Shown here one piece after another: positions 1,842 through 20,700 of a stretch of DNA of 64,000 nt. The notes beneath the pieces are model-generated. The model made no database searches. It was not told the DNA's origin and was given only the letters and a program-made list of their open reading frames with translations. The first letter of the stretch is position 1; the number at the start of each line of letters is the position of its first letter. A program made the position numbers and the translations under genes. This stretch comes from an uncultured Holophagales bacterium (GTDB lineage Bacteria; Acidobacteriota; Thermoanaerobaculia; Multivoradales; UBA5704), in contig CAWJGT010000009.1 of assembly GCA_963842525.1 (NCBI GenBank), forward strand, positions 928,001-992,000. Reading direction: 5' to 3'.

Positions 1842-2160
1842 ACAGCACCTTTCCCTCGCGCGCTGCCGGACGCTCGATGGTTCCGGGGATCTCCTTACGC
1901 CACTGGAATTCTTCGGGAGTCGTGACGACAATGTCCTTCGCAATATGGATATTCCTCAGGGCGAGACGGATCTCGACCTGTGTCTCCTGCTTGGAGCCGG
2001 AGAGCGGCATCACGACGAGCAGATCGACGTCACTGTCGGGGCCGGCGTCGCCGCGTGCATGCGAGCCGAAGAGGATGATCCTTTCCGGATGAAAGCGGCT
2101 CACGATCCGGCGTACCATCTGCTGAATCTCTCTTCTGGCAACGAAATCCGTCTTGTGCAT
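1828..2160 (-). CDS. Minimal nucleotidyltransferase (MNT) domain protein
   Basis: ILFGSHARGDAGPDSDVDLLVV pol-beta-type motif; 110 aa; overlaps the HEPN start. Confidence 0.9.
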   Translation of the reverse strand: MHKTDFVARREIQQMVRRIVSRFHPERIILFGSHARGDAGPDSDVDLLVVMPLSGSKQETQVEIRLALRNIHIAKDIVVTTPEEFQWRKEIPGTIERPAAREGKVLYARS

Positions 2161-2220
2161 CAGAAGAACCCTCGCCGAGTATGGTAGCTCATCCCCAGCG
2201 TGGACCGGTCAAGGTGCGTG

Positions 2221-5061
2221 TCACCGCCGGCCCGCGGGGCGCCGTCGGACCATCATCAAAGCAACGAGAACCAGAACGGCGATCCCGGCGCCGGCCATGA
2301 TGCGGGGGGCGGCGAGGAAGAGCCAGCTCCGTCCGCCCGGGACGGGCACGAGGTCGCCGTCTCCCAGGACGACCAGCCCGGCCCAAGCGTAGGCGGGGGC
2401 GCCGTCTTCGATGCGGTCGAGCTGGGCCGCGCGGAGGGCCGCGGCGACGCTCTTGCCCTGAGCGAGGTGGCGGTAGAAGCGGTCGAAGATGGCTGCGCCG
2501 TCGTCGTCGCGCAGCGGCCAGAGGCTCGCTACGACGGTATGGGCGCCGGCCTGGAAGAAGGCGCGCGCCACTCCCATCATCCCTTCGCCGCGGAGCACGG
2601 TGCCTGAAGCGCTGCGGCAGGAGGAGAGGACGGCGATCTGGCCGTTTAGCCGGAGGGGCACGATCTCGCGGAGCTGGAGGAGGCCGTCCTCCGTGGCCGG
2701 ATCGGGCGTCAGGAGGACGCCCGATCTTTCGCTGTTCTGGTCGTCGAGCACCGCATGGGTGGCGAAGTGCAGGACGCGGAACCGGTGGAGGTCCTCGCTC
2801 TTCAGAAAGCCCTCGGAGGCTTCCTGGCCGACCCGCAGGATACTGCCGCCGCCGAGGTATCGCACGGCGGCACGGCCTTCACGCCGGGCGAACGGCAGGG
2901 CTCCCAGCCTCGTGGCGGCGGCGAACACGGCGGAGCGTTCTGCGGCCGGGCCCGGAGGGCTCCCCGAGACGGTCCCCGGCAGCACGGGATCGGCGAGGGC
3001 GAGCAGCGGCTCTGCGGCCAGGGCGGGCTGAGCTTGCCGCCATTTCAGCCAGAGCGTGGCGGAGGGCGCGACGGCGATCTGGTAGCGCTCGGCGAGCGGC
3101 CCGGCCCCGGCCTTGGGGCGCAGGGCCGCGAACGGGAGTTGGTGGAGCGCGTCGTCCGGCAGGATCACGAGCCTCCGGACCCCGGATGGCAGATCGCGCA
3201 GCGCGTCCTGCAACAGGTCGCGATAGAGGCCGGCGGAGGGCGCCGCCTCGCTTCCGTCCCGCCGTTCGAAAAGGCCGTCGAGGAGGCGCACCGCGGGCCG
3301 CAACGAAACCCGGTCCCGCCGCAGGCGATAGATCCGCGTGCCGCCGTGCGTGATCGCCAGCAGCCAGGAGCCGCCGGCGAAGTCGCCGAACCATCCCTCG
3401 TCGGGGGCGATCTGGAAGGAGAGGAGGGCCTCGTCCGGCGCCAGCACCCTCCGCACTTCGGGCAGGGTGGCGAAGCCGGGGCGCTGCGCGCGGGCTCGTA
3501 TGGGGCCGGCGCTGGCGATCTGGTCCTCGATGCCGTCCTCCTCGATTTCGAGCCGGCGCAGCTCGCGGAGAGCCGAGGCCCGCTCCGAGGCCGGCAGGGT
3601 GGGCTCGAGAAGCCGGCGCTGGACCTGCGTGAGCTGTGCCAGGACCCGGGTGTGTCGCGCAGCGAGCCCTGCTGGTAGAACGGCCGGTGTTGCGCGGGCA
3701 GCCTCCAGCGCTTCGACGAGCGTCCGGGCACGCAGGCGCTCGGTGGTGGCGAAGGCTTCGTCGAGGCTTCCGGTAGAGTGGTTTTCGAGGAAGTCCTGGA
3801 GCAGGCGGCCGGAGAGCCAGTAGTAGTCCTCGGACCACAGGGAGAAGAGCCCGGCGCGGCCCGATTCCCCTTTCTGCTGCTCCCGGATCACTTCGAGGGA
3901 GCGCAGGGCCGTGCGCGAGTCGGCGGCGGCCTGCTCGCCGGGAAGGGTGGCCCAGCTCACACGCATCCGTTCCCGCAAAGCGTGGTAGCGCACCCAGGGG
4001 TCCTGGGACTGATCGGCGAGGGCGAGGGCTTCCGTTACGATCGGGACCGCGCGGGCAGGGTCTTCCCGCCGGAGCTGGCGCGAGAGGGCGACGAGGCATT
4101 GGCTCCGGTCCGCCGGGAGGCGCAGGGCCGCAAGGCACTGCTCGATGTGGTGGTGGGCTTCCGCGCCGCTCGAGAGCTGGCCGAGGACGATATGGGCGCG
4201 GGCAGCGATGTCTGGGATCCCGAGCTCGGAGGAGGCCGCCAGGATCTCGCGTGCCACCTGAGCGGTCTCCCGGCGGGTTTCCGGCCCAGGCATTTCGAGG
4301 ACCTCCTCGACCAGGCCACGCAGGACGCCATAGCGGGCGATGACCTCGAGGCGCCGCTCGCCATGCGCCCGGGCCAGATCGGCCAGCCGCCCATAGGCTG
4401 CACGTGCCTCGAGAATCCGGCCGAGAGAGAAGCTGACTCCGGCCATCTCCTCCAGGAAATCCCGCTGCAGGGTGTACAGATCGCCGGACCCCGGGAAGAC
4501 CGCGTTCTGCGCCTGGTGGAGCAGCACGTACGCCCTCTCCAGATTTCCCCCTCGCAGGCGGAGATGCCTGGCCTGGAGGACGTTCGCCCGGGCGGTCTGG
4601 AGAGGGTCTCCCGTGGCTCGGGCGATGGCGACGACCCGTTCCACCTCTCGTTCCGCCTCCTCCGGACGGCCCTGGCTGATCAAGACCATGTGCAGGGCGG
4701 TGCGGGCGCGGATCTCGCCGATGGCGTCACCGCTCCTGGCGAAGACCGCCGCGGCGTCCCTGTAGGGAAGCTCGGCGTGCCGCGGCTCTGTCCATCGCAG
4801 GTGACCCAGGTAGAACAGCAGCCACGGATGGCTGGGATGGCGGGAGAGCAGCAGCTCCACGCGCCGGGATGCTTCGGCTGCAAGGCCCGGCGACCGCCCG
4901 GCGGCATAGAAGCACTCGGCCGATGCCTCGGCCTCCGGCGCGGCGGAGAAGCGCTCTTCGCAGGCGCTCAGCGTCGAGTCACCCGCGGCGAGGACCGGGC
5001 CAGAGAGCAAGAGAAGGACCGAGGTGAGGAAAACGGCGATGGCGGGACGGCCGATAGGCAT
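2221..5061 (-). CDS. TPR-like helical repeat + CHAT (caspase-like) protease, exported and C-terminally membrane-anchored (copy 1)
   Basis: N-terminal signal peptide; CHAT motifs ILPDDALHQLPF, HFATHA (His), VLSSCRS (Cys), VASLW, WAGLV; hydrophobic C-terminal helix followed by RRRPAGRR. Confidence 0.9.
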   Translation of the reverse strand: MPIGRPAIAVFLTSVLLLLSGPVLAAGDSTLSACEERFSAAPEAEASAECFYAAGRSPGLAAEASRRVELLLSRHPSHPWLLFYLGHLRWTEPRHAELPYRDAAAVFARSGDAIGEIRARTALHMVLISQGRPEEAEREVERVVAIARATGDPLQTARANVLQARHLRLRGGNLERAYVLLHQAQNAVFPGSGDLYTLQRDFLEEMAGVSFSLGRILEARAAYGRLADLARAHGERRLEVIARYGVLRGLVEEVLEMPGPETRRETAQVAREILAASSELGIPDIAARAHIVLGQLSSGAEAHHHIEQCLAALRLPADRSQCLVALSRQLRREDPARAVPIVTEALALADQSQDPWVRYHALRERMRVSWATLPGEQAAADSRTALRSLEVIREQQKGESGRAGLFSLWSEDYYWLSGRLLQDFLENHSTGSLDEAFATTERLRARTLVEALEAARATPAVLPAGLAARHTRVLAQLTQVQRRLLEPTLPASERASALRELRRLEIEEDGIEDQIASAGPIRARAQRPGFATLPEVRRVLAPDEALLSFQIAPDEGWFGDFAGGSWLLAITHGGTRIYRLRRDRVSLRPAVRLLDGLFERRDGSEAAPSAGLYRDLLQDALRDLPSGVRRLVILPDDALHQLPFAALRPKAGAGPLAERYQIAVAPSATLWLKWRQAQPALAAEPLLALADPVLPGTVSGSPPGPAAERSAVFAAATRLGALPFARREGRAAVRYLGGGSILRVGQEASEGFLKSEDLHRFRVLHFATHAVLDDQNSERSGVLLTPDPATEDGLLQLREIVPLRLNGQIAVLSSCRSASGTVLRGEGMMGVARAFFQAGAHTVVASLWPLRDDDGAAIFDRFYRHLAQGKSVAAALRAAQLDRIEDGAPAYAWAGLVVLGDGDLVPVPGGRSWLFLAAPRIMAGAGIAVLVLVALMMVRRRPAGRR

Positions 5062-5094
5062 GCGGGCAGGGGTCCTGCCCCGATTCTAGACCAA

Positions 5095-5127
5095 CCGGCG
5101 GGCGGGGCGATCGGCCCCGCCCGCCGG
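5095..5127 (-). terminator. GC-rich hairpin after the small peptide ORF
   Basis: Perfect 14-bp stem CCGGCGGGCGGGGC / GCCCCGCCCGCCGG with a 5-nt loop; weak U tract. Confidence 0.6.
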
Positions 5128-5136
5128 GAAGGATGC

Positions 5137-5226
5137 TCAGGTCTTCGGCGGATCGACCGGAGGCGGAGGGATCTCGTCGCGGACTGTGGTGGCTGCCTTC
5201 GGGTCGAAAATCGTATTGTCTTTCAT
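5137..5226 (-). CDS. Unannotated 29-aa Pro-rich peptide MKDNTIFDPKAATTVRDEIPPPPVDPPKT
   Basis: GGAGA RBS 6 nt before the ATG, conserved promoter-like motif upstream and hairpin downstream; same layout as the 8236..8391 ORF. Confidence 0.55.
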   Translation of the reverse strand: MKDNTIFDPKAATTVRDEIPPPPVDPPKT

Positions 5227-5294
5227 GACTGGTCTCCAGCGGAATCATCGGATTTCAAATTTTGTCGTTTCCTTCGCGGCTTGCGCCGCCCACA

Positions 5295-5332
5295 CATCTC
5301 CAGGAACGATGGGGATAGGGAGATTCCCTCAC
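5295..5332 (-). promoter_or_regulatory. Putative ECF sigma promoter GTGAGGG-N16-TCGTTCCTGGAGATG (copy 1)
   Basis: Two identical blocks with an identical 16-nt spacer also occur at 8443-8480; CGTT is a typical ECF -10 core. Confidence 0.6.
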
Positions 5333-8160
5333 GCGACGGAACGACGACGTTTCCAGAGCAACAGCGAGGCGATGGCTAAAAGGAGGAGAATGGCGCCGGC
5401 GGCGATCCAGCGCTCGTCGAGGAGGAGGCCCTGGCGTCCGCCTGGAAGCGGGACCAGGTTCCCGTCCCCCAGGACGACGAGCCCGGCCCAGGCATAGGCC
5501 GGTGCGCCGTCTGCGATCCGGTCGAGCTGGGCCGCGCGCAGGGCCGCCGCCACGCTCCGGCCCTCGGCGAGGCGGCGGTAGAAGCGGTCGAACAGGGCCG
5601 CGCCGTCGTCGTCGCGCAGCGGCCAGAGGCTCGCCACCACGGTGTGGGCGCCGGCCTGGAAGAAGGCGCGGGCCAGGCCCATGACCCCCTCGCCGCGGAG
5701 CACGGTGCCCGAGGCGCTGCGGCAGGAGGAGAGGACCGCCACCGTGCCGTCGAGATGGAGGGGTACGATCTCGCGGAGCTGGAGGAGGCCGTCCTCGGTC
5801 GCCGGGGCCGGAGTCAGGAGGATGCCCGAACGCTCGGGGTTGCGGGCGTCCAGCACGGCATGGGTGGCGAAGTGGAGCATGCGGAACCGCCGCAGGTCTT
5901 CGCTCTTGAGATAGCCCTCGGAGGCGTCCTCTCCCATGCGCAGGAGGCTCCCGCCACCCAGGTACCGCGCCGCCGCGCGGCCCTCGCGGCGCGCGAAGGG
6001 CAGGGCTTCCAGACGGGCCGCGGCAGCGAACACGGCGGAGCGCTCTGCGGGCGGGCCGGCGGGGCGGCCCGTAGTGATTCCCGGCGTCCCCAGCATCACC
6101 GGATCGGCGAGGGCCAGCAGCGGCTCTGCCGCCGGCGCCGGCTGATTGCGCCGCCAGTGGAGCCAGAGGGTGGCGGATGGCGCGACGGTGATCTCGTAGC
6201 GGCTGGCCAGCGGCGGACCCCTCGGGTCGGGACGCAGCGCGGGGAAGGGGAGCTGGTGGAGCGCGTCGTCCGGGAGGAGCACGAGGCGCCGCACGTTCGG
6301 CGGCAGGTCTTTCAGGGCGTCGGCCAGGAGGTCGCGATAGAGGCCGGCGGCCGGCGCCTCCTCCGCGCCGTCGCGCCGTTCGAAGAGGCCGCTGAAAAGG
6401 GCTACGGCCGGCCGCAGGGCGATGCGGTCGCGGCGCAGGCGGTAGGCCCGGCTGCCGTCGCGCGTCGCAACGACGAGCCACGAGCCGCCGGCAAAGCCGC
6501 CGAACAGGTCCTCGTCCGGAGCGACCTGGAACGACAGGAGGGCCTCGTCCGGCGCGAGGGCGCGTTGCACTTCGGTCAGCGAGGCGAAGGCTGAGGCGAC
6601 GGAGCGGGCGGGGCTCGCACGGTCGATCTGGTCACGGACCTCGGCTTCTTCGAGCTCCAAGTGTTCGAGCTCTGTCTGGGCGGTCGTCCTCTCCGCCGCT
6701 GGCAGCTCGGGATCGAGCAGCCGGCGCTGGACCCGGGCGATGTCCTCGAGGAGGAGGGCGCGGCGCGTCCGTAGCGCCTGTTCGGTGGCGCCGTGCTCGG
6801 GGGTGGCCTGCGCGGCGGCGAGAGCATCGAGCAGAGCGCGGGCCCGCTTTCTCTCCATCACGCCGAAGGCGCGTCCGAGGCTGTCCCGTCCCTTGCGCTG
6901 CGCGGCGGCTTCGAGCAACCGGCCGGCGAGCCAGGAGTAGTCTTCGGACCAGCTCGAGAAGAAGCCGACCTGGCTGGACGAGTTTCCTTGCAGACCGCGC
7001 AGCGTCTCGATGGCGTCGAGCGCGGACTCTGAGTCGGCCACGGCCTGCTCCGTCGAGCCGGAGGCCCAACTGACGCGCATCCGCTCGCGCCAGGCGTAGG
7101 CCATCATCCAGGGCTTGTCGGACTGGCGGACCAGACGAAGCGACTCTTCGATGGCGGTTCGTGCCCGGGCGGGGTCCTCCGCCGAGAAATGGCGGGCCAG
7201 GGCATTGAGGCAATAGCTCCGGTCGTGGAGGTTGTCCGCAGCCTTCAGGCAGGCCTCCAGGTGCTGCCGGGCTTCGCGGCCGGTGGTGAGCAGGCCGAGC
7301 AGCCAGTGCGCCTTGGCTTCGACACCGCGGTTCTCGGCGGCCGCGGCGGTGGCCAGGGCATGCCGCGCAAGCTCGATCGCCTCCTGCCGGTACCCGGGAC
7401 GTGGTGCCTCGGCGACGCCGTCCAGAAAGGTGCGTGCCAGACTGTAGCGGGCACTGGCCTCTCCAAAGAGGTCGGTCTCCGACCGGGCCAGCTCCGCGGC
7501 ACGGAGATAGTTGGCCTTGGCCTCTTCGTAGCGCCCGAGCTCCAGGCTGACGTTGCCGAGCCAGACCAAGCAATCGCGCTGGATCGAGTACTCTCCCTTG
7601 GGAAAGGCGACTTCTTCGGCGCGGCGGAGAAGGAGGTAAGCCCGTTCCAGGTCCCGGCCGAGCGAGAACAGATAACGGACCCGCCCGATCTTCGCCCAGG
7701 CGATCAGATTTGGGTTTCCCGAGGCGTCGGCCACTTTCTCAGCCTGCTCCGCCTCGTCTCCAGCGGCTTCGGTGCGTCCCAATTGGGACAGGACGCGCTG
7801 CAGGTTCAGTCTCGCGAGAACCTCGCCACGGGGGATGCGCCTCTCGGCGAACTTCCTGGCGGCAGTGCGATAGAGCACCTCGGCTTCCGCCCAGTTCTGG
7901 GTCAGATGCCCCAGGTAGAACGTGATCCAAGGGTGGCCGGGCCGTTGGGAGAGGAGAGTCCGGAGCCGATTGACGGCCTCCTGCGCCTGTGCCGGATCTC
8001 GGCCCACCTCGTAAAAGCACTTGGCGGACTGCTCGGCGTCCGGCGTCGTAGCGAGTTGGGAATCGCAGGCCGCGAAGTCGGGCTTGACTTCGGCGTGTGC
8101 GCGTGCCAACGAAAAGGACAGGGCGAGGGCGAGCAGCAGGACGGCGGTACGAGAAGACAT
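5329..8160 (-). CDS. TPR-like repeat + CHAT protease, exported and membrane-anchored (copy 2)
   Basis: Likely start MSSRTAVLLL (signal peptide); HFATHA and LSSCRS dyad motifs; C-terminal TM helix plus KRRR; CHAT domain nearly identical to copy 1. Confidence 0.9.
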   Translation of the reverse strand: MSSRTAVLLLALALSFSLARAHAEVKPDFAACDSQLATTPDAEQSAKCFYEVGRDPAQAQEAVNRLRTLLSQRPGHPWITFYLGHLTQNWAEAEVLYRTAARKFAERRIPRGEVLARLNLQRVLSQLGRTEAAGDEAEQAEKVADASGNPNLIAWAKIGRVRYLFSLGRDLERAYLLLRRAEEVAFPKGEYSIQRDCLVWLGNVSLELGRYEEAKANYLRAAELARSETDLFGEASARYSLARTFLDGVAEAPRPGYRQEAIELARHALATAAAAENRGVEAKAHWLLGLLTTGREARQHLEACLKAADNLHDRSYCLNALARHFSAEDPARARTAIEESLRLVRQSDKPWMMAYAWRERMRVSWASGSTEQAVADSESALDAIETLRGLQGNSSSQVGFFSSWSEDYSWLAGRLLEAAAQRKGRDSLGRAFGVMERKRARALLDALAAAQATPEHGATEQALRTRRALLLEDIARVQRRLLDPELPAAERTTAQTELEHLELEEAEVRDQIDRASPARSVASAFASLTEVQRALAPDEALLSFQVAPDEDLFGGFAGGSWLVVATRDGSRAYRLRRDRIALRPAVALFSGLFERRDGAEEAPAAGLYRDLLADALKDLPPNVRRLVLLPDDALHQLPFPALRPDPRGPPLASRYEITVAPSATLWLHWRRNQPAPAAEPLLALADPVMLGTPGITTGRPAGPPAERSAVFAAAARLEALPFARREGRAAARYLGGGSLLRMGEDASEGYLKSEDLRRFRMLHFATHAVLDARNPERSGILLTPAPATEDGLLQLREIVPLHLDGTVAVLSSCRSASGTVLRGEGVMGLARAFFQAGAHTVVASLWPLRDDDGAALFDRFYRRLAEGRSVAAALRAAQLDRIADGAPAYAWAGLVVLGDGNLVPLPGGRQGLLLDERWIAAGAILLLLAIASLLLWKRRRSVA

Positions 8161-8195
8161 TGAGGGAGGGGAGTCTAGGCCACCCAGGGAGATTG

Positions 8196-8224
8196 AAAAA
8201 CGGGCGGCGCACCTGGGCCGCCCG
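8196..8224 (-). terminator. Intrinsic terminator after the 51-aa peptide ORF
   Basis: 8-bp stem CGGGCGGC/GCCGCCCG followed by TTTTT on the minus strand. Confidence 0.7.
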
Positions 8225-8235
8225 CCATGCAAAGG

Positions 8236-8391
8236 CTAACCGCCGATCGGCCCCGGGTTCTCGTCCGGAGGAGTGCAGCAGTAGGGATCGTAGTCCTTGC
8301 CGCCTTCCTTCGGATCGCCGGTGGTGTCCGGGGCGGTCGCGGCCGCGGGTCTCGTCTTCTCGTCTTGGGGCTCGGTCATCTCGTGAATCAT
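8236..8391 (-). CDS. 51-aa acidic, Pro-rich peptide MIHEMTEPQD...DYDPYCCTPPDENPGPIGG
   Basis: AAGGAG RBS 6 nt before the ATG at 8391; promoter-like motif upstream; terminator downstream. Confidence 0.65.
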   Translation of the reverse strand: MIHEMTEPQDEKTRPAAATAPDTTGDPKEGGKDYDPYCCTPPDENPGPIGG

Positions 8392-8442
8392 GATGTTCTC
8401 CTTCAATTCTTCAGGCCGGCGGGTCGGCTCCAGGTTTGCGTT

Positions 8443-8480
8443 CATCTCCAGGAACGAAGGGAGTGAGGCGTTCCCCTCAC
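8443..8480 (-). promoter_or_regulatory. Putative ECF sigma promoter GTGAGGG-N16-TCGTTCCTGGAGATG (copy 2)
   Basis: Matches 5295-5332 in both blocks and spacing, with a different spacer sequence. Confidence 0.6.
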
Positions 8481-8602
8481 CCCTCCTTCCCATCTCCCGG
8501 CTTGATACGGAGAACCATTCCCAAGGTTCTTGGATCCCACCTGCGGCAGGAAAAATTTATACGAGAGAAGATGCTAATTTCTCATCTTCTTTGTTCATTT
8601 CC

Positions 8603-9290
8603 CTACTGGACCGTCGTCACGAAGGTCTTCGAGCTCAGGCGGCTGCCGTCGGGAAGGTCGGCCTCGACCTTCCAGAAGAGACGCGAGCCGGTCGGCATGC
8701 CGGCGAGGGCGCTCGCGGGCACCTGGAAGCTCGGGCGTCCGCAGGTCCTTGGCGCTGGCGATCACCCGCAGATCCTCGGTGCTCACCTCGACGTCGTAGG
8801 TCGCGCCCGCGGCCGAGGGCGCCGACCAGCGCAGGACGAAGCGGTCGCGGGGCAGGGACGCGCCGTCCGTGATCCGCGACTGGATGGCGTCCTGCTGGCC
8901 TTCGCGATAGCCGGCCGTACCCTGGTCCGGCTGCTGGGCCTGGTAGAGCTGGACACCCACGACGGCCACCGCCAGCGCCGCCGCGGCTGCGAGGGCGAAG
9001 GTGCGCACGCGCTGCCAGGGGCCGTAGCGCACGACCGCGCCAGGAGCCGGAGCGGTGGAGACCACCGGCTCGGGCGCCTGGAGGGCGCGCGCCAGCCGCC
9101 AGTCCTCGGCGCAGGACGAGCACACCACGGTGTGCTCCACGATCTGCTCGACCTCGTCCGGCGTCAGCTCGCCGTGCACCGCCGCCCAGATCCTCTCCGG
9201 GGCGGGGCAGGTTTCGGGAGCCGGGGCGGGTTGCGAGACAGACGCGAATGCCCGGCGCAGCTTGGTGAGCTCCTCATCCTCCAAATTCAT
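8603..9290 (-). CDS. Zinc-binding anti-sigma factor (ZAS/zf-HC2) with TM helix and extracytoplasmic beta domain; 1-nt frameshift near 8730
   Basis: HTVVCSSC (HxxxCxxC), Ala/Val TM segment, ATGA overlap with the sigma gene. Removing one C near 8730 gives FQVPASAL...LFWKVEADLPDG...TFVTTVQ*. Confidence 0.85.
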
Positions 9291-9865
9291 CGCGCCACTC
9301 CTTTCCCATCGAGGCATCCACGCAGGTCCGCCAGGCCGCGGTAGACGAGGTTCTCCGCTTTCTTCGTGGTCCAGCCCAGCAGCTTGCCGATCTCGGGGAC
9401 GCTGTGCCCTTGCAGGTTGAGCGTCACGGCCGAGCGGCGCGGGCTGACCAGCCGGCCGAGGCAGTCCCGGATTGCCCGTCCGGTCTCCTTCGCGGCTGCG
9501 GTGCGCTCGGGGTCGGGGCTTTCCGACGCCGGATCGAACCGTACCTCCGAGCTCTCGTCTTCCAAAGGAACCTCCTGGCGCCTGCGTAGCCTCCGGATTT
9601 CATCGATAACGGCACTGTAGGCTGCCTTCCTGAGGTAGAACGAGCTGAACTCGGCGTTTCCCTCACGCTTGCGGTGGATCTCGACGACACGCATGAGGGC
9701 AACCTGGATGATGTCCTCGGAGCGGTCGGACATCCAGCGGGGGCAGGTCTGGGCCACTGCGCGCTTCAGGTCCTGGCGGAGCGCCACCAGGTCCAGCTCT
9801 GCCGGGCTGGGAAAGGCAATGACCCGGGAGCCCGGTTCGGAGGCGCTGTGTCTATCAGGTCCCAT
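9287..9865 (-). CDS. ECF-family RNA polymerase sigma factor
   Basis: Region 2 (SEDIIQVALMR...YLRKAAYSAVIDEIRR) and region 4 HTH (GHSVPEIGKLLGWTTKKAENLVYRGL); GAGGA RBS before the ATG at 9865. Confidence 0.9.
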   Translation of the reverse strand: MGPDRHSASEPGSRVIAFPSPAELDLVALRQDLKRAVAQTCPRWMSDRSEDIIQVALMRVVEIHRKREGNAEFSSFYLRKAAYSAVIDEIRRLRRRQEVPLEDESSEVRFDPASESPDPERTAAAKETGRAIRDCLGRLVSPRRSAVTLNLQGHSVPEIGKLLGWTTKKAENLVYRGLADLRGCLDGKGVAR

Positions 9866-9947
9866 CAGGTCCTCGCTGGGAAGGGATTTATAGCGCAAAA
9901 GGCCCCGCGCGTCCGCCCTACCCTCTGGGCGGTGGTCCTATCGAAGG

Positions 9948-12374
9948 TCACTCGGCCCGCAGGGCCACCAGGGGATCGACCCGGGTGGCGCGCCGGGCGG
10001 GGAGGAAGCTCGCGACCAGGGCCACGGCGATCAGGACGAGCGGCACCACGGCGAAGGTCAGGATGTCGGTCGGCTTGACGTTGTAGAGCAGCGCGGAGAG
10101 CCAGCCGGTGGTGGTCACCGCGATGGCGCCGACCAGCCCGGCGGCGAGCCCGGCCAGGGTGAGGCCGAGCCCCTGGCGCAGGACGTAGCGCAGCACGTCC
10201 CTGCGGTCGGCGCCGAGGGCCATCCGGATGCCGATCTCCTGGCGGCGCTGGGCCACCGAGTAGGCGATGATGCCGTAGAGGCCCACTGCGGCGAGGAGCA
10301 GCGCGAGCACGGCGAACAGCCCGAGGATCAGGGTACGCAGCCGCGGCCGGGCGATGGACTCGGAGATCTCCGTCTCCATGGTGGTCAGGTTGGCCACCGG
10401 GATGTCGGGGTCGATGGAGCGGGCCACCTGCCGGACCTCCCCGGCGAGCGCCAGCGGATCGCCCTCGGCGCGGACCATCACGTCCATGGCCCAGTGGGGC
10501 TGCTGCAGCAAGGGGATATAGAGATCGGGCCGCACGGCTTCGATCTCGCGGTAGCGGGCGTCGCCCACCACGCCGACCACGGTCAGCCAGGGGCGGTCCG
10601 TCTGGCCGCCGCGGCCCCAGCGCAGGCGCTTGCCCCTCGGGTCCTGGCCCGGCCAGAAGCGCTCGGCCGTGGACTTGTTGACGATGGCCACGAGCTGCGA
10701 CGTGTCGGTATCCGTCGTCGTGAAGTCCCGCCCCTGGAGCAGCGGGATGCCCATGGTCTGGAAGTAGCCGGGGCTGACCCGCTCATGGTTCGACGTCGGG
10801 TTGGTCGCCTGCGCCTCCGGCGTCTGGCCCTCGACCGTGAAGTCGTAGTCCCAGCCGATGGGGCCGGAGAGCGGGCGCAGGAGCACGAGGCTCGCGCGCT
10901 CGACCCCCGGCAGGGCCTCGACCTGCTGCAGCACGTTCTGGAAGTAGCCGGCCCAGTTGTGCGGCTCGGGGTACTTGCTGTTGAGCGTCAGGCGGAAGGT
11001 GAGGAGCCGCTCCGGCCGGAAGCCGAGGTTGGTCCGCTCGAGCTCCACGAAGCTGCGGATGACCAGCCCGGCGGTGACGAGCACGACCAGGGCCAGGGCC
11101 ACCTCGCCGGCGACCAGCAGGTTGCGCAGCCGGCTGGTGCGGACGCCCGCCGACGACTTGCCTCCTTCCTTGAGCGCCGCGGAGAAGTCCGGGCTGGTGG
11201 TCTGGAGCGCCGGCGCCAGGCCGAAGAGGAGCACGGTGGCGAGCGACACGGCCAGGGCGAAGGCGATGACCCGGCCGTCGATGCCCACCTCGTCCAGGCG
11301 CGGGATGTCCGCCGGGCCGATGGCGACGAGGACCTGGAGGCCGGCCCAGGCGAGCAGCAGGCCGACGACCGCCGCGAGAACGGCGAGCAGCAGGCCTTCG
11401 GCCAGGAGCTGCCGGACCAGTTGCGTGCGCCCGGCGCCGAGGGCGGTGCGCACCGCGGTCTCCTTCTGCCGCGCCGCGGCCCGCGCGAGGAGCAGGCCGG
11501 CGACGTTGGCGCACGCGATGAGCAGCAGGAGCCCGACGGCGCCGAGCATCAGGAGGAGCGCGGCCCGGGTGTCGCCCAGGATCTCCTCGACGATGGGCGT
11601 GACCCGCGCCGTATAGCCCTGATTGGCGACCGGGCGTTGCTGCTGCATCGCGAGGGAGACGCGGAGGAGGTCCTCGCGCGCCTGCTCCAGGCCGACGTCC
11701 GGCTTCAGGCGGCCGATCGCGTGCATGATCCGGAGGTCGCGGATCGAGGTGTCGGCATAGAGGTCGGACAGGGTCGTATAGAGGTCGACGCCCTGGGGGA
11801 AGCGGAAATCCGGGGGCAGGATACCCACGATCAGATGGGGCGTGTTGTCCAGGAGGACCTTCTGGTTGACGACCGCTGGGTCGGAGCCGAAGTGCCGCTG
11901 CCAGAAACCGTGGGAGAGCACCACCACCCGGGCGCCCGGCTTGTCCTCCTGGCCGGGCAGGAAGGTCCGCCCGAAGGCGGGCCGGACGCCGAGGACCCGG
12001 AAGAGGTTGTCCGAGGCCAGCCGTCCCCGCACGTGGAGGGCCTCGCCGCGGCCGGTCAGGGAGACGTCGGCGTCGTTGGTGGTGATCACCGCCAAGTCGG
12101 AGAAGACCCGGTTGTTGTCCTTCCAGTCGGTGAAGTCCTGGATCGAGACCTCGACGAGCTTCTGGTTGCGCTCCTTGACCTCGCCCCAGACGGTGACCAG
12201 GCGGTCCTGGTCGTGGAAGGGGAGGGGCCGCAGGAGCACGGCGTCGACCATGCTGAAGATGGCAGTGGCCGCGCCGATGCCGAGGCCGAGGGTGAGGACC
12301 GCCGGCAGCGTGAAGCCCGGAGACCGCACCGCGAGGCGAAGGGCATGCCGGAAGTCGCGCAGGAAGCTCGCCAT
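9948..12374 (-). CDS. ADOP-type duplicated MacB/FtsX ABC permease
   Basis: DFRHALR..RSPGFT...LGIGA, LLIACANVAGLLLAR, EIGIRMALGA and PARRATRVDPLVALR motifs; 808 aa. Confidence 0.92.
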   Translation of the reverse strand: MASFLRDFRHALRLAVRSPGFTLPAVLTLGLGIGAATAIFSMVDAVLLRPLPFHDQDRLVTVWGEVKERNQKLVEVSIQDFTDWKDNNRVFSDLAVITTNDADVSLTGRGEALHVRGRLASDNLFRVLGVRPAFGRTFLPGQEDKPGARVVVLSHGFWQRHFGSDPAVVNQKVLLDNTPHLIVGILPPDFRFPQGVDLYTTLSDLYADTSIRDLRIMHAIGRLKPDVGLEQAREDLLRVSLAMQQQRPVANQGYTARVTPIVEEILGDTRAALLLMLGAVGLLLLIACANVAGLLLARAAARQKETAVRTALGAGRTQLVRQLLAEGLLLAVLAAVVGLLLAWAGLQVLVAIGPADIPRLDEVGIDGRVIAFALAVSLATVLLFGLAPALQTTSPDFSAALKEGGKSSAGVRTSRLRNLLVAGEVALALVVLVTAGLVIRSFVELERTNLGFRPERLLTFRLTLNSKYPEPHNWAGYFQNVLQQVEALPGVERASLVLLRPLSGPIGWDYDFTVEGQTPEAQATNPTSNHERVSPGYFQTMGIPLLQGRDFTTTDTDTSQLVAIVNKSTAERFWPGQDPRGKRLRWGRGGQTDRPWLTVVGVVGDARYREIEAVRPDLYIPLLQQPHWAMDVMVRAEGDPLALAGEVRQVARSIDPDIPVANLTTMETEISESIARPRLRTLILGLFAVLALLLAAVGLYGIIAYSVAQRRQEIGIRMALGADRRDVLRYVLRQGLGLTLAGLAAGLVGAIAVTTTGWLSALLYNVKPTDILTFAVVPLVLIAVALVASFLPARRATRVDPLVALRAE

Positions 12375-14779: not shown

Positions 14780-17700
14780 CTACTTACTTGGGTGCGGAGG
14801 ATCGACGAGACGTGACACCAAATCGTCGATATGCGGCGGCCGCAGGATGGAATAGTGGTCGCCGGGGATCGAGGCCACCCCAAGCTCGGCCACACGCCCT
14901 TCCCACCCCGGCAAGGAATCGCGCGGTGTGTCCTCGGGACGGAAGAGCAGCGCTTTGCCGCCGTAGGTGCCCCCCTCGTAGCAACGCGCCGCCTCGGCGT
15001 GTGTCCGGAAGGTCTCGAAGAGCCGCCTTGCTCCGACGAGGTCGAGCCCCGGCGGGAGGAGGTCGGCTTCGCGTGCCAGGCCGAGGAGGCGGCGCAGGCC
15101 CTCATTGATATCCAGGCTCCGCAGCTCCTCGACGATCATGGCGGGAAGCCCGATTCCGATCCGGGCCCCCAGGTCCGCGGCGAGAGCGAGGACGAGGTCG
15201 GAGTCGGGAAGGGGATCGCCATAGTGGCCTGGCGCCATGGTATCGATCAGGATGAGGTCGACACTCTCCCCCTCAGCCTCCAGCCGCCGGGCCATCTCGA
15301 AGGCGACGAGGCCGCCCAGCGACCAGCCGCCGAGGCGGTAGGGGCCTTGCGGATGCGCGTTCCGCAGACTGCGGAGATAGCGGTCGGCCATGTCCTCGAT
15401 TGTGGCCTCGGCACCGGTGGCCTGGAACCCGTAGACCGGATGATCGGGGCCCAGCATGTTGGCGAGGGGGGCATAGCCGAGCACGCTGCCTCCGGCCGGG
15501 TGGACCAGGAAGAGCGGCGGACGGGTGCCGGCCGGCTGGATGGCGACCAGCGGGTCCGTCTCGACAGTGGTCCCTTCCTGGCGCAGGACGGTGGCCAGAT
15601 CCTCGATCGTGGGGCTCATGAAGAGCACGGCGACCGGGAGGTCCCGGCCGAACCGTTCGCGCAGGCGGGCCATCAGGAGGATGGCCAGCAGGGAGTGGCC
15701 GCCCAGCTCGAAGAAGCTGTCGCGGACGCCGATCGGCCGGACGCCGAGCATGTCCTCCCAGAGGTGGACCAGCTCCAGCTCGACGGCATCGCGCGGCGGG
15801 AGGGCCTCGCGGTCGCCGGTGCGCTCCGGAGCGGGCAGGGCCCGGCGGTCGACCTTGCCAGCCGGCGTGAGCGGCAGGGCGTCGAGGCGCACGAAGGCCG
15901 AAGGGAGCATGGGCTCGGGGAGACGGCTGCGCAGGAAGGCGCGCAGCTCGCGGGGCGGGACGTCCCCGACCACATAGGCCACCAAGCGCTTGTCGCCTGG
16001 ACGATCCTCTCTCACCAGCACGGCGGCTTCGCGCACCCCCGGGCAGGAGGCGAGGGCGGCTTCGATCTCGCCGAGCTCGATCCGCAGGCCGCGGATTTTC
16101 ACTTGATGGTCGATCCGGCCGAGGAACTCCAGATTGCCGTCCGCCAGCCGGCGCGCCAGATCGCCGGTGCGGTACATGCGCTCGCCCTCGATCCCCGCGA
16201 ACGGCTCGGGGAGGAAACGCTCGGCGGTCAGGTCCGGCCGGCCGAGGTAGCCACGGGCGAGCCCCACACCGGAGAGCCAGACCTCGCCGGCCGCCCCAGG
16301 CGGGACTGGCTCCAGGTGCCGGTCGAGAAGCCAGGCGCGGGCGTTGCGCAGCGGCCGGCCGATCGGCGTCCGGCGGTCGCGCGCTTCCGGGCCTACGGGG
16401 TAGAGGGTTGCGCAGATGGTCGCCTCGGTGGGGCCGTAGCCGTTGAGGATCCGCAGCCCGGGGATGCTGCGCATCAGCGAGGCGAGGAGAGGCTCGGGGA
16501 TCGGCTCGACGCCGACGAGCAGCCGGCGCAGGCTCGGCGGGGGCGCCGCGGCCAGGTCCGCTAGCAGCATCGGCGGCACGTAGGCGCTCTCGATCCCGCG
16601 CTCGGCGAGCCAGGCGGCGAAGGCCCGGCCGTCGGCCCGCACCGCCGCGGGCGGGATCTCCAGCCGTCCCCCCGAAAGCAGGGCCGAGAAGACCTCCCAG
16701 ACCGAGGGGTCGAAGGACAGGCTCGTCCAGACGCTGGAGGCCGCGCCCACGGGCACCGGCGCCCGCTCGTCGAGCTCCGCCAGGTGATTCAGGACCCCGG
16801 CATGGTGGCAGGCGACTCCCTTGGGGCGCCCGGTGGAGCCGGAGGTGAAGAGGACGTAGGCGAGGCTCTCGGGGCGAGGCCGCCGCCCTAGCCCAGGGTT
16901 CACACCCTGGGCTACCGAATGGCGCCCTCCGGGCTCTGGAGAGCCGAGGATTTGAGAGCCCGGAGGGCGGAACTGGGTAGCCCCGGGTGTCAACCCGGGG
17001 TGAGCGGGCTCGACGACCTCTCGCGTGATCGTCGCCGCCAACCCAGCATCCTCCGCCATCTGCCGCAGCCGTTCCTCCGGATAGGCCGGATCGAGCGGCA
17101 CGTAGGCCCCGCCGGCCTGGAGCACCGCCAGGATCGCCACGATCGCATCGACCGAGGTCTCCATCCGGATCCCCACCCGGTCCTCCGCGCCGATCCCCAT
17201 GGCCAGGAGGTGCGAGGCCAACCGACCGGACCGTTCCGCCAGCTCGGCATAGGTGAGCCGCTGGTCGCCTTGGACCAGGGCCGGAGCCTCCGGCGTCCGC
17301 CGGGCCTGCTCCAGGAAGGGCTCGTGGAGGAGCCCCTCCGGCACAGGCTTTCGATCACCCTGGCTCTCCTCCAGGAGCTGGTGCCTCTCGGCCTCGGAAA
17401 GCAGCGGGAGACTGAAGACCGGCCGCGCAGGATCGGCGGCAGCCGCAGCGAGGAGGGTCTGCCAGCCGTCGGCCAGCCGGTCGAGGGTCGCGGGCTCGAA
17501 GAGGTCGGCGGCGTACTCGATGCCGAGGTTGATCGCCTCCCCGGTGTCGAGGACGTTGAAGAAGATCTCGTACTTCACCGCCGGTACGGTCGGGACCAGC
17601 GGAGAGACGCGCAAGCCCGGCAGCCCGGCCTCCCGCGGGTCGGCGGTCAGCAGGCCGAACGCCACCTGGAAGAGCGGCGAGCGGTCGAGCATCCGCTCGG

Positions 17701-20700
17701 GCTGCAGCTCCTCGACGAGCCGCTCGAACGGGAGGTCGGCATGGGCGTGGGACGCGAGGATGCTCTCCCGGACCCGGCCGGCCAGCTCCGCGAAGCCCGG
17801 CTCGCCCGCGAGGCCGGCGCGCAGCACCAGGACGTTGGCGAAGAGGCCGATCAGCCCCTCGGTCTCCAGGCGGTCGCGGCCGGCGGTGGGCGAGCCGACG
17901 CAGAAGTCCTCCTGATGGGCATGGCGGGCGAGGACGACCTGGAAGGCGGCCAGCAGGACCGCGAACGGGGTCGACACGGTGCCACGGGCGAGGGCGCGCA
18001 CGTTGGCCGCCAGATCGTCCGGGAGCCGCCGCCAGCGATAGGCGCCGCGCTGGCTCTGGATCGGCGGCCGCGGCCGGTCGGTGGGGAGGTCGAGGACCGG
18101 CGAGGCCCCGGCCAACCGCTCCCGCCACCAGGCGAGCTGCCGTTCCAGGACCTCCCCCTGGAGCCAGCCGCGCTGCCAGAGGGCAAAGTCCGCATACTGG
18201 ATCGGCAGGGCGGGCAGCGGAGAAGGGAGCCGCCGCGAGAAGGCGTCGTAGAGGGTTCCCAGGTCGCGCTGGAACACCTGGAGCGACCAGCCGTCGCTGA
18301 CGATGTGGTGGGACATCACGAGAAGAGCGTGCTCGGCGGGACCGAGCCGGAGGAGCCAGACCCGCAGCAGCGGCCCGCGGGCGAGGTCGAACGGGCGCGC
18401 CGCCTCTTCCAGGGCGATGCGGCGGGCCTCCTCCTCCCGGACCTCCGCGAGAAGGCCGGCGAGGTCGGTCAGGGGAAGCTCCGGCGTGGAGGCTGGCGCG
18501 ATCCGCTGCACCGGCTCGCCCGCGCGCTCCGCAAACGTGGTGCGCAGCGCCTCGTGCCGGCGCACGATCCCGGCCAGGGCCGCGGCGAGCGCCGGCACGT
18601 CCAGGTCCCCCTCCAGGCGCAGCGCCGCGGGGACGTTGTAAGCCGCGCTCCCGGGCTGCAGGCGGTCGAGGAACCAGAGCCGGCGCTGCTGGAACGAGAC
18701 GAGGGCCTCGTCCCAATCTCCAACGGGCCGCTCCGGCCGTGGCGTGATCGGAGGAGGGGCCGGTCCGGCCAGCACCGTCCGCGCCGACCGGATGCGATCC
18801 GCGAGCTCGGCCACGGTCGGCCGCTCGAAGAGGTCGCGCAGCGGCAGCTCGACCCCGAAGGCCCGGGTGACGCGCGCCAGAAGCTGGGTCGCCAGAAGGG
18901 AGTGTCCGCCGAGGGCGAAGAAGCTGTCGTGGCGCCCGACCCGCTCGGCGGCCAGCACCTGGCCCCAGATTCCGGCAAGCTCCTGTTCGACCGGATCGCG
19001 AGGCGGCTCGAAGGGCCGCTCGGCCTCCAGTTGTATCGCCGCCTCGGACCCCATCCGGGCGAGGACCCGGCGGTCCACCTTGCCATGAGGCGTCAGGGGC
19101 AGCGCAGGGAGCGGCACGAAGAGCGACGGGATCATGACCTCGGGAAGGCTCCGGCCGAGGAAGGCGCGCAACGCTTCGGGGGGCGGAGGATCGGACTCGG
19201 CGGCGAAATAGGCCACCAGCCGCTTGCCGGTGACGCCGCCCTCGTCCTGGACCAGCACCACCGCCTCGCGCACGTCCGGGTGGCGGGAGAGAGCCGCCTC
19301 GATCTCCGCCGGCTCGACACGGATGCCGCGGATCTTGACCTGATGGTCGATCCGCCCGAGGAAGTCGATCACGCCGTCCGGCTGCCATCGCGCGAGGTCG
19401 CCGGTCTTGTAGAGGCGCTCCCCGGGCTGCTCCGAAAACGGATTCGGCACGAAACGTTCGGCTGTGAGGTCGGGTTTGCCCGTATAACCGCGAGCGAGGC
19501 TGACGCCGCCGAGGAACAACTCTCCGGGCACCACCGCCGGGACCGGCGCGCCGTTGCGGTCCAGGATGTACTGCCGGGCGTTGGCGATCGGCCGGCCGAT
19601 CGGCGGTCCGGCAGGCCAGGTGCCCGGCGGCCCCGCAAGCATGTGGGCGGTGATGCCGTGCGTCTCGGCCGGGCCGTAGAAGTTGCGCAGGCGGCATGCG
19701 GGCAGCCGTTCGAAGAGGCGGGCCACCGCGGGTGTAATCTTCATGGCCTCGCCCACCGTGGTGACCCAGCGTAGCGAGGCGAGCCGTTCCTCCCGGCCTT
19801 CGCAGACCTCGGCGAGCTGCTGGAGCACGACGACCGCCAGCACCATCTCCTCGATCTTTTCCTCTTCGATGTAGCGGGCCATGGCTTCGGCATCGCGCCG
19901 CGCAGACTCCGTCAGGAGATGAAGCGAGCCGCCCGAGGCCAGGGCGGTGAGCAGCTCCTGGAAGAAGACGTCGAAGCTGAACGAGGAGAAGCCGAGCACC
20001 CGCCGCCCGCCGCCATAGGCGCCGATGTGCCAGCGCACCATGTTGACCAGCGCACGCTGGGTGAGGGCGATGCCTTTGGGACGGCCGGTGGTGCCGGATG
20101 TGTAGATGATGTAGCCGGGGTGGTCGGGGAGAGGGAGAACCTCACCCCCTGTCCCCCTCTCCCATCTCCCTTCCACCCCCCGCCGGGAGAGGGGGAACGC
20201 ATCCAAAGCCTTATGCCCGGGCTCGCCACCTTCGCTCCATCTACGTTCCCCCTCTCCCGGGGATAGGGAGGGTGGGAGATGGGAGAGGGGGTTAGGGGGT
20301 GAGGACATCAGCACCCGTGCCCCCGAATCCGCCAGCATGTACTCCAGCCGTTCCGCCGGATGCGCCGGGTCGAGCGGCACATAGGCCCCGCCTGCCTCCA
20401 GCACCGCCAGCATGGCGATCAGCAGCTCCATCGACCGCTCGGCGCAGATCGCGACCGGCGAGTCCGGACCGACTCCCAGCTCCCGCAGCCGGCCGGCGAG
20501 TGCGGACGTCCGGCGCCGCGTCTCCGCGTAGGTCAGACGCTCGTCGCCGAAGACCAGGGCGAGCGCCTCCGGAGTGCGCTCCGCCTGGGCGGCGAACATC
20601 GCGAAGGCCGTCTCCCGGTCTGCCCGTCTCGGATAGCCCCGGTGTCGTTCCACTCGCGGAGCACCTGCGGCCTCCTCGGCCGCGGTCAGGAGCGGGAGGC

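Follow-up and report, generated by a model that had tools for sequence, protein, structure and literature searches.

A candidate ECF sigma regulon pairing conserved proline-rich micro-protein genes with TPR-CHAT protease genes in Thermoanaerobaculia

The 64,000-nucleotide stretch of DNA analyzed here (hereafter, the window) comes from an uncultured Holophagales bacterium of the Acidobacteriota, class Thermoanaerobaculia, and contains two paralogous genes encoding putative proteases of the TPR-CHAT type (tetratricopeptide repeats, TPR, followed by a CHAT domain), each of them preceded by a very small open reading frame (ORF). The minus strand carries all genes of the region. On this strand, genes for a sigma factor of the extracytoplasmic function (ECF) type and an anti-sigma factor, which overlap by 31 nt, lie directly upstream of a first unit in which a promoter-like motif, a ribosome-binding site, a small acidic proline-rich ORF, a GC-rich hairpin and a TPR-CHAT gene follow one another, and the same order is then repeated in a second unit. 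In the direction of transcription, the features are the following.

9287..9898, minus strand: ECF-type sigma factor gene, 203 aa; Pfam Sigma70_r2 and r4_2, TIGR02937 (sigma70-ECF) 4.7e-16.
9638..9665, minus strand: third copy of the core motif, TGAGGG-N17-CGTTC, near codon 78 of the sigma gene; from this internal position a possible promoter of the anti-sigma gene.
8595..9317, minus strand: anti-sigma factor gene with N-terminal zf-HC2 domain; PF13490 5.8e-5.
8443..8480, minus strand: promoter-like motif 1, with GTGAGGG at 8474-8480, N17 counted from TGAGGG, CGTTC at 8452-8456 and the downstream block CTGGAGATG.
8236..8391, minus strand: micro-protein gene 1, 51 aa, MIHEMTEPQ...DPYCCTPPDENPGPIGG; Shine-Dalgarno GGAG 6 nt 5' of the ATG; CC..PP..DPGP family.
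8196..8226 (core stem 8201-8224), minus strand: hairpin 1, 8 G-C and 2 G-U pairs followed by TTTTT, terminator- or attenuator-like by folding.
5329..8160, minus strand: TPR-CHAT protease gene 1, 943 aa; PF12770 1.1e-60.
5295..5332, minus strand: promoter-like motif 2, in which the TGA at 5329-5331 doubles as the stop codon of CHAT gene 1.
5137..5226, minus strand: micro-protein gene 2, 29 aa, MKDNTIFDPKAATTVRDEIPPPPVDPPKT; Shine-Dalgarno GGAG.
5095..5127, minus strand: hairpin 2, 14-bp GC stem with a 5-nt loop and the weak T tract TTGGTCT, by folding.
2221..5061, minus strand: TPR-CHAT protease gene 2, 946 aa, paralogue of gene 1; PF12770 1.6e-60.

In the first unit, GAAGGAGAACATC stands directly 5' of the ATG of the 51-aa ORF, the C-terminus of which is YCCTPPDENPGPIGG, while in the second GCTGGAGACCAGTC stands directly 5' of the ATG of the 29-aa ORF, ending in EIPPPPVDPPKT / DEIPPPPVDPPKT. 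Each hairpin starts 9-11 nt after the stop codon of the small ORF, and the CHAT genes start 33-36 nt past the outer helix of their hairpin. The peptide genes have GGAG sites, and the two CHAT genes are preceded by the C-rich sequences CCCCTCCCTCA and CCCTGCCCGC, with no good Shine-Dalgarno sequence. An earlier note, made from the letters of this stretch, had described two motif copies that keep their blocks and spacing and differ in their spacers, each ahead of a ribosome-binding site, a proline-rich ORF (51 and 29 aa), a hairpin and a CHAT gene. Both copies were found exactly at 8443-8480 and 5295-5332, their blocks in register and their spacers different, and all of the elements said to follow them are present on the minus strand.

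The complete 38-nt pattern, GTGAGGG-N16-TCGTTCCTGGAGATG, has exactly two matches in the 64-kb window, where none is expected; no further copy was identified in the 64 kb with up to three mismatches, nor in 100 dinucleotide-preserving shuffles. Searches with a CHAT profile built from 26 homologues yielded 74 loci, on contigs taken from one genome per species, and the components of the module were counted over 70 CHAT genes, among them the two of the window, whose upstream sequence extends over 450 nt or more; three further genes fell short of this length and were left out. A motif was scored when TGAGGG-N(14-19)-CGT[TAC] occurred on the coding strand 200-560 nt upstream of the CHAT gene. By this measure it precedes 52 of the 70 genes, and its frequency follows identity to the first CHAT protein of the window (CHAT1), with 37/40 genes at 50% identity or more, 6/8 at 45-50% and 9/22 below 45%. 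The spacer is 17 nt long in 52/52 sites, even though 14-19 nt were permitted, and the consensus over these sites (GTGAGGGGATcGgg...gtTCGTTcc) corresponds to the geometry GTGAGGG(G/A)A-N-TCGTT, with 17 nt separating TGAGGG from CGT. The whole 1.69 Mb of locus sequence contains 134 matches on both strands, and the presence of about 50 of them inside the short intervals upstream of CHAT genes constitutes a strong enrichment. At CHAT-to-CHAT junctions, moreover, the TGA stop codon of the upstream gene is also the TGA of the next TGAGGG in 7 of 11 cases (the window, L001, L002, L020, L023, L028 and L040). A simple scan of positions 2000-10200 found no sigma-70-like promoter. The CGT-containing -10 block, the fixed spacer and the recurrence ahead of several co-located genes give the motif the appearance of an ECF-type promoter.

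The distribution of the motif around the sigma and anti-sigma genes points in the same direction. Relatives of the sigma factor, with 40-71% identity, are encoded upstream of CHAT in 40 loci including the window, and sigma and anti-sigma relatives together are found ahead of CHAT in 39 fetched loci and the window. When the ORFs of 120 aa or more from the 74 loci and the window were clustered, CHAT, anti-sigma and sigma emerged as the only widely shared genes, apart from shadow ORFs. Of the 23 loci in which a spacer separates sigma and anti-sigma, 22 have the motif in that spacer, ahead of the anti-sigma gene; where the two genes overlap, 10 of 17 loci, the window (9638-9665) among them, carry it near codon 78 of the sigma gene. 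Motifs within the sigma coding sequence are probably promoters of the anti-sigma gene. In the 400 nt upstream of the sigma start, where an autoregulatory copy might be expected, the motif occurs in only 1 of 40 loci. Since the sigma gene is almost never preceded by the motif, the wiring suggests negative feedback via the anti-sigma factor, with no obvious positive loop involving the peptides. We infer that the adjacent ECF sigma factor reads the motifs of both the CHAT units and the anti-sigma gene, and the earlier suggestion of a fixed-geometry promoter tied to this sigma/anti-sigma pair is supported by the invariant N17 spacer and by the recurrence of the motif either ahead of the anti-sigma gene or within the sigma coding sequence.

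Two further features of the sigma/anti-sigma region were observed. The anti-sigma gene of the window presents an apparent frameshift near 8725-8745: after ...AKDLRTPEL, its 240-aa frame enters unrelated sequence, and the conserved end ...VPASALAGMPTGSRLFWKVEADLPDGSRLSSKTFVTTVQ continues in another frame (ORF 8603-8722), as seen by comparing a three-frame translation with orthologues ending in ...LLWQVxAxxPDGxxxxSPTFTTxLQ. This may reflect an error of one base in the assembly or else a truncation of the periplasmic domain, and in the latter case the sigma factor could be more active. Separately, the long sigma/anti-sigma spacer of L031 (4573-4677) contains a second, reversed copy of the motif that faces the 3' end of the sigma gene and is followed after ~60-70 nt by a hairpin and a T tract. 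Reversed copies are also present in the long spacers of L012, L017, L018, L033, L037, L043, L045, L046 and L058, and the window has none; they could give rise to a sigma-dependent small RNA or an antisense transcript.

The small ORFs that follow the motif belong to a conserved family. With an automatic criterion requiring a ribosome-binding site, 18-115 codons and at least 4 Pro among the last 18 residues, a proline-rich small ORF was detected upstream of 49/70 CHAT genes, and motif and small ORF were found together in 42/70; the criterion misses a few clear members of the family, among them those of L014, L023 and L028 (tails ...CCRAPGDPDGGPDT), and selected the wrong ORF in L035. The module recurs in dozens of related soil bacteria, within a clade of Thermoanaerobaculia, and one carrier, L034, is a metagenome-assembled genome of Thermoanaerobaculum. 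Comparable small ORFs beside homologous CHAT genes, the lack of which would have refuted the reading of the earlier note, do exist, as a conserved family. In an alignment of 36 of these peptides, a variable, hydrophilic N-terminal part rich in Thr, Pro and Asp precedes a conserved tail, typically ...(D/N)xCC(T/V/S)xPPxxDPGPxKG and, in other branches, ...GDAPPDxDPGPIKG or ...ELPPPPxDPPK(A/T/R). The first peptide of the window has a tail of the CCxxPPxxDPGP type, and the second one of the ELPPPPxDPPK type, with a ...ELPPPPDDPPKA ending that it has in common with the peptides encoded ahead of the CHAT orthologues in L001, L002 and L003. Synonymous codons vary at the conserved positions, with Pro encoded by CCG, CCC or CCT, Asp by GAT or GAC and Gly by all four codons, a pattern that reads as the signature of selection on a protein.

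Database searches with a profile of these peptides retrieved 51 proteins of 36-69 aa (E ≤0.01) from a collection of 5.8 billion clusters; these are annotated as 'hypothetical' wherever the source names them, and none has a Pfam domain. In a second collection of 1.84 billion representatives, the profile found 30 proteins at E ≤0.001, of 38-52 aa and all of them stand-alone. Pfam and NCBIfam hold no family matching either window peptide, PADLOC and the ESM Atlas gave, respectively, no match and no usable match for the first of them, and within the window the profile matches only the two known ORFs, both members of the profile. Hydropathy over 12 residues peaks at 0.88 in the peptides, their net charge has a median of -4, and no hydrophobic or signal segment was seen in them. 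Together, these results give good support to the small ORFs as a real micro-protein family, evidently translated judging from codon variation, frame conservation and ribosome-binding sites. As far as could be checked, neither the family nor the promoter-peptide-hairpin-protease module has been described, while the kinds of component that make it up are known: a literature search returned work on DdvA and craspase only, and neither peptides of this sort nor acidobacterial ECF-CHAT loci came up in it; the ECF classification (PMC7826278) has supplements, outside the reach of that search, which could name the group and its gene neighbourhood.

Variants of the arrangement were noted among the loci. 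In L012 (5515-5818) and L018 (5539-5823), two tandem peptide genes, both ending in CCTSPPSTDPPPPKG, share one promoter, and a hairpin follows only the second. Ahead of the CHAT genes of sister clades, the same promoter is followed by genes for other small proteins (53-98 aa), several of which end in ...QDPPKPN or ...QDPPRA; they were found in the second modules of L008, L023, L028 and L035 and in L010, L013, L022, L026 and L040. Two types can be distinguished among them, one consisting of a pair of 49-59-aa proteins, one member of each pair with ...VTVAYSVTPEENYAGPP... or a close variant, and the other of a single 71-98-aa protein with ...QDPPKPN or ...QDPPRA at or near its C-terminus. Examples from L022 and L023 have no Pfam match.

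The hairpin that separates each peptide gene from its CHAT gene is likewise conserved. Among 33 aligned downstream regions, pairing extends to 95.3% of the cells in the stem, with compensatory changes at 9 of 11 pairs; none of 500 column shuffles attained these figures, and sliding the partner strand by 1-3 columns lowered the pairing to 38-60%. The stem begins 8-37 nt after the stop codon (median 22; 33 sequences), and in 24/33 regions at least 5 T occur within 12 nt past the hairpin, which is notable for a GC-rich genome. In the window, hairpin 2 folds with -37.6 kcal/mol (z -4.4; 0/200 shuffles as stable) and hairpin 1 with -21.3 kcal/mol (z -1.7; 12/200 shuffles as stable). A permissive Rfam scan of positions 2000-10200 gave sub-threshold chance matches only, none of them in the leaders. 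The covariation shows the hairpin after the small ORF, as claimed in the earlier note, to be a conserved structure at the level of sequence alignment. Taken together, motif, small ORF and hairpin make a well-supported case, from sequence comparison, for two predicted transcription units.

Both CHAT proteins cover the whole PF12770 model (E ~1e-60) after weak TPR matches. An AlphaFold2 model of CHAT1 (predicted local distance difference test, pLDDT, 88; predicted template-modelling score 0.85) comprises helical repeats as far as residue 534 or so and an alpha/beta domain after them, and its Foldseek comparison identified Csx29 (1e-12), DdvA (2e-12) and separase (2e-10), each with probability 1.00, at global TM-scores of only 0.25-0.37, as expected of flexible multi-domain proteins. 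The N-terminal half matches the peptide-binding TPR of LGN/Pins (1e-7). By sequence, a CHAT profile retrieves only TPR proteins such as LGN/Pins from the PDB, and the CHAT relatives appear by fold alone. Three residues, H763, H767 and C813, are invariant in 106 sequences and are located after the model strands 759-765 and 807-810, so that a catalytic His (H763 or H767) and Cys (C813) are predicted to be kept. The model thus shows a predicted fold of the separase/craspase/DdvA type with an invariant His/Cys pair. Both proteins start with a Sec-type signal peptide, have near-invariant Cys pairs and end in a hydrophobic helix with a basic tail behind it, KRRR (as in CHAT1) or RRR, and because of these three features the body of the CHAT protein is predicted to be periplasmic and tethered by its C-terminus. 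CHAT1 and CHAT2 share 59% identity overall, and their alignment shows visibly greater divergence in the TPR half than in the CHAT half.

Just before the C-terminal helix and Arg-rich tail (window positions 5329-5460 and 2221-2350, minus strand), the proteins have a juxtamembrane motif, GDGxxVP(L/V)PGGR(K/R)G, that is strongly conserved. Its layout recalls a C-terminal sorting signal or an autoprocessing site, and it has no NCBIfam match. By eye, this linker and the peptide tail look alike (GDAPPDPDPGPIKG and GDGDLVPLPGGRKG, respectively), and mimicry of the linker by the tail was considered and dropped, as the peptide profile misses the linker in 106/106 CHAT proteins, 19 of which gave negative-score matches elsewhere only. 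PADLOC returned weak BovA and TPR matches only, and the assignment of the proteins to a defence system was abandoned for this reason.

The association of peptide and protease was assessed by phylogeny and by co-folding. The TPR half was used for a maximum-likelihood tree of the quick kind, which covers 49 of 55 labelled rows, six short translations having been left out. On this tree, all peptide-bearing CHAT genes form one clade (support 100) that excludes the peptide-less genes, and its sub-clades are tracked by the peptide classes. The existence of a single peptide-bearing clade suggests that the module arose once, and the promoter, peptide gene and hairpin would have been inserted between the anti-sigma and CHAT genes and later duplicated as a unit. 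The peptide gene is always directly upstream of the CHAT gene, and both were duplicated together. Within the clade, alignment and tree indicate that the tail Cys-Cys gave way to Gly-Asp (CCTAPP to GDAPP) on at least 3 occasions. When CHAT1 (residues 24-905) and peptide 1 were co-folded, both as alignments, the pair scored 0.53 (runs 0.52, 0.53 and 0.61), and the best of three controls 0.00. The mark that this result passes was reached by 116/157 solved complexes and 2/215 mismatched pairs, with scores of 0.60 or less contributed by only 18 of the 157 complexes and by both passing mismatches. Contact agreement among the runs was at least 39% and the pLDDT of the partner at least 37; the peptide itself was modelled with low confidence in all three (pLDDT 38-40), consistent with disorder. 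The binding of each peptide to its TPR-CHAT protein, as put forward in the earlier note, is weakly favoured by this one modelled pair and appears plausible.

Together, these observations lead us to propose, with moderate confidence, that the locus contains two tandem transcription units of one ECF sigma regulon, and that the micro-protein of each unit is a trans-acting partner of the TPR-CHAT protein encoded behind it. The sigma factor, once freed from its anti-sigma factor, would transcribe both peptide-CHAT units and the anti-sigma gene, the latter closing a negative feedback. Each transcript would start with a 5' leader of roughly 45-70 nt, as estimated from the coordinates of the motif and the ATG, and the hairpin, with its imperfect T tract, would end most of them, leaving the micro-protein in large excess over the protease. 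Such an excess is suggested by the strong Shine-Dalgarno sequence of the peptide gene and the hairpin on the one hand and by the C-rich sequence 5' of the CHAT gene on the other. The CHAT gene, left without room for a promoter of its own, would be expressed by read-through of the peptide unit. The micro-protein may then act as a pseudosubstrate, a substrate or a ligand, bound through its conserved C-terminal tail, and would have diverged together with the TPR half after duplication of the module.

Several observations weigh against this proposal. Every one of its functional steps is deduced from sequence, and the assignment of the motif to this particular sigma factor rests on co-location, with the near-absence of the motif before the sigma gene (1/40) being atypical for ECF systems. 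Hairpin 1 is by itself not exceptionally stable for its composition, and a simple terminator scan of positions 2000-10200 flagged neither hairpin. The tail Cys-Cys pair is evidently not essential, given its repeated replacement, and the tracking of CHAT clades by peptide classes is expected from vertical co-inheritance alone. A co-fold pass of the kind obtained, for a single pair, is more often wrong than right when no strong prior accompanies it. The weakest link is topological: the periplasm is the predicted place of the protease, the peptides lack an export signal, and neither an exporter nor a maturase is conserved nearby among the clustered ORFs of at least 120 aa. The peptide may act as a guard on the protease before its export, when it is still in the cytoplasm, or it may leave the cell by some route; otherwise the idea of a partnership would be wrong.

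A more specific version of the proposal, which we hold to be rather doubtful, casts the locus as a counterpart of separase and securin under ECF control. In it, a disordered micro-protein that co-evolves with the protease and is made in excess would place its Pro-rich tail (..PPxxDPGPxKG or ..PPPPxDPPK) as a non-cleavable decoy in the TPR groove or the active site, and its loss, export or consumption would time the action of the protease. The protease would then most likely act on the anti-sigma factor's periplasmic domain, and the whole would form a protease-gated sigma switch with a peptide timer.

Alternatively, the small ORF could be a cis-acting leader peptide, in which slowing of the ribosome on the Pro tail sets the read-through into the CHAT gene and the peptide itself has no function. 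Proline motifs stall ribosomes, and the conserved part of these ORFs is precisely a Pro-rich C-terminal tail (PPP, DPP, PPD, DPGP) just before the stop codon; a hairpin lies downstream of the small ORFs, in the window 9-11 nt past the stop, and the window CHAT genes have neither a promoter of their own nor a good ribosome-binding site. Several properties of the family speak against this reading, however. The range of stop-to-stem distances over the 33 aligned sequences leaves no fixed register between ribosome and hairpin, the tandem peptide genes of L012 and L018 share a single hairpin, residues other than Pro (Cys-Cys, Asp, Lys-Gly) are conserved too, and the sister clades carry conserved 53-98-aa proteins behind the same promoter. 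We therefore regard a leader peptide as unlikely.

The signalling idea of the earlier note, in the form of an exported peptide that is sensed by the periplasmic TPR and activates the CHAT protein to act on the periplasmic domain of the anti-sigma factor in a feedback loop, appears quite unlikely. It draws on the adjacency of the peptide gene and the gene for a TPR protein, on the weak binding support from co-folding and on the predicted periplasmic location of both the TPR-CHAT protein and the C-terminal domain of the anti-sigma factor; for DdvA, one report (PMC11506125) proposes that a periplasmic TPR-CHAT domain clips an anti-sigma factor. Against it stand the lack of a signal peptide or hydrophobic segment in the peptides and of a conserved exporter in the loci, as well as the position of the motif, which precedes the sigma gene in 1/40 loci, so that induction would mainly raise the anti-sigma factor. 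Outgroup loci without peptides, moreover, keep sigma, anti-sigma and CHAT, which indicates that the core works without them.

It is very unlikely, in our view, that the micro-proteins act on the sigma or anti-sigma factor, or on some other cytoplasmic target, independently of CHAT, their placement then following from the promoters of the regulon. The predicted cytoplasmic location of both the peptides and the zinc-finger domain of the anti-sigma factor would suit such a role, as would the Cys-Cys pair of many peptides, but that pair is dispensable, and the peptide gene always lies directly before a CHAT gene and is duplicated with it. Finally, that the small ORFs are untranslated and the conserved element is a promoter with a structured leader or terminator RNA is highly improbable: chance ORFs are common in high-GC genomes and peptide 2 has only 29 aa, but strong ribosome-binding sites lie at the right distance, frame and tail motif are kept across ~40 genomes with synonymous variation, gene callers of several sources had already predicted members of the family and no Rfam family matches the leaders.

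Beyond the module, an ADOP-family duplicated permease gene (9948-12374, minus strand) abuts the sigma gene, an adjacency seen elsewhere only in L050, and a non-ribosomal peptide synthetase gene (14780-21391, minus strand; 2203 aa, two modules and a thioesterase) lies further upstream. Neither gene is conserved with the module. The permease family and the names borne by homologues agree with a placement in Acidobacteriota, class Thermoanaerobaculia.

TPR-CHAT proteases occur widely among bacteria, and a partner or trigger is known for few of them, such as craspase and DdvA. The proposed trans-acting micro-protein would provide a conserved candidate partner, with a motif of 10-15 residues, for a whole clade of TPR-CHAT proteins predicted to be periplasmic. 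Largely unnamed, without a model in Pfam or NCBIfam and with a window copy of only 29 aa, the family illustrates how genes of this kind escape annotation. The analysis also defines a putative promoter for an uncharacterized acidobacterial ECF sigma factor, with the anti-sigma rather than the sigma gene under the motif, located in some genomes within the sigma coding sequence and accompanied in some relatives by a divergent copy that would give a short RNA. Should the peptide prove to be a decoy or a ligand, securin-type control would be extended to bacteria, or a new kind of envelope signalling would be at hand.

Proteases of the separase fold work with dedicated partners, namely securin and Scc1 for separase, Csx30 for craspase and its own linker for DdvA. 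The locus described here resembles separase and securin in combining a helical-repeat, caspase-like protease (fold matches 5u1t, 7nj1 and 5mz6) with a small protein that is modelled as disordered, is a possible pseudosubstrate and, as deduced here, would be present in excess. It differs in that there is no sequence relation, in that the small proteins, at 29-70 aa, are far shorter than securin, and in that protease (signal peptide and C-terminal anchor) and peptide are predicted to reside in different compartments, where a securin-like pair would share one. In craspase, Csx29, itself a TPR-CHAT protein, reportedly cleaves Csx30, with a functional link to an ECF-type sigma factor. Csx29 is the top-ranked fold match of CHAT1 (1e-12), and a nearby-encoded protein substrate is a feature of Csx29 that the present arrangement may share; Csx29, however, is cytoplasmic and activated by RNA through Cas7-11, Csx30 is a full-size protein and no CRISPR genes are found at this locus.

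Other small partners and precursors offer partial parallels. Staphostatins are cytoplasmic inhibitors co-encoded with the secreted cysteine proteases they restrain, the staphopains, and they are folded beta-barrels encoded downstream. As with staphostatin, a signal-less candidate partner would share an operon with a cysteine protease predicted to be exported, on which it might serve as a guard before export, but there is no homology and the peptide gene lies upstream of the protease gene. RRNPP pairs consist of a pro-peptide with an N-terminal secretion signal and a TPR receptor that resides in the cytoplasm and is fused to an output domain; gene adjacency is the only feature in common, since the peptides described here have no such signal and their TPR protein is predicted to be periplasmic. 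In lantibiotic clusters, a leaky terminator after the small precursor gene yields many peptide transcripts per enzyme transcript. The units share with these operons the succession of promoter, presumably strongly translated small gene, hairpin and enzyme gene, and they differ from them, and from operons for ribosomally synthesized and post-translationally modified peptides, in the lack of a conserved maturase, transporter or immunity gene and in having the C-terminus, not the leader, as the conserved part.

The closest parallel is DdvS/DdvA of Myxococcus xanthus, an ECF sigma factor and a transmembrane anti-sigma factor with a TPR-CHAT periplasmic domain (PMC11506125, PMC6061681). At the present locus, the TPR-CHAT protein, instead of being fused to the anti-sigma factor, stands alone and has its predicted anchor in a helix at the C-terminus, two paralogues are present, and each has a micro-protein gene and a hairpin for which the DdvA passages considered here describe no counterpart. 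DdvS promoters have the form GTAA-N16-CGT (PMC6061681), in place of the TGAGGG-N17-CGT found here, where the host is an acidobacterium and the context, with weak PADLOC matches only, is neither CBASS (cyclic oligonucleotide-based antiphage signalling) nor CRISPR. Both systems nonetheless bring together, in one locus, an ECF sigma factor, a zinc-finger anti-sigma factor and a periplasmic (here, predicted) TPR-CHAT protein with a His/Cys dyad, both have ECF-type promoters with CGT in the -10 block, and DdvA is among the best fold matches of CHAT1.

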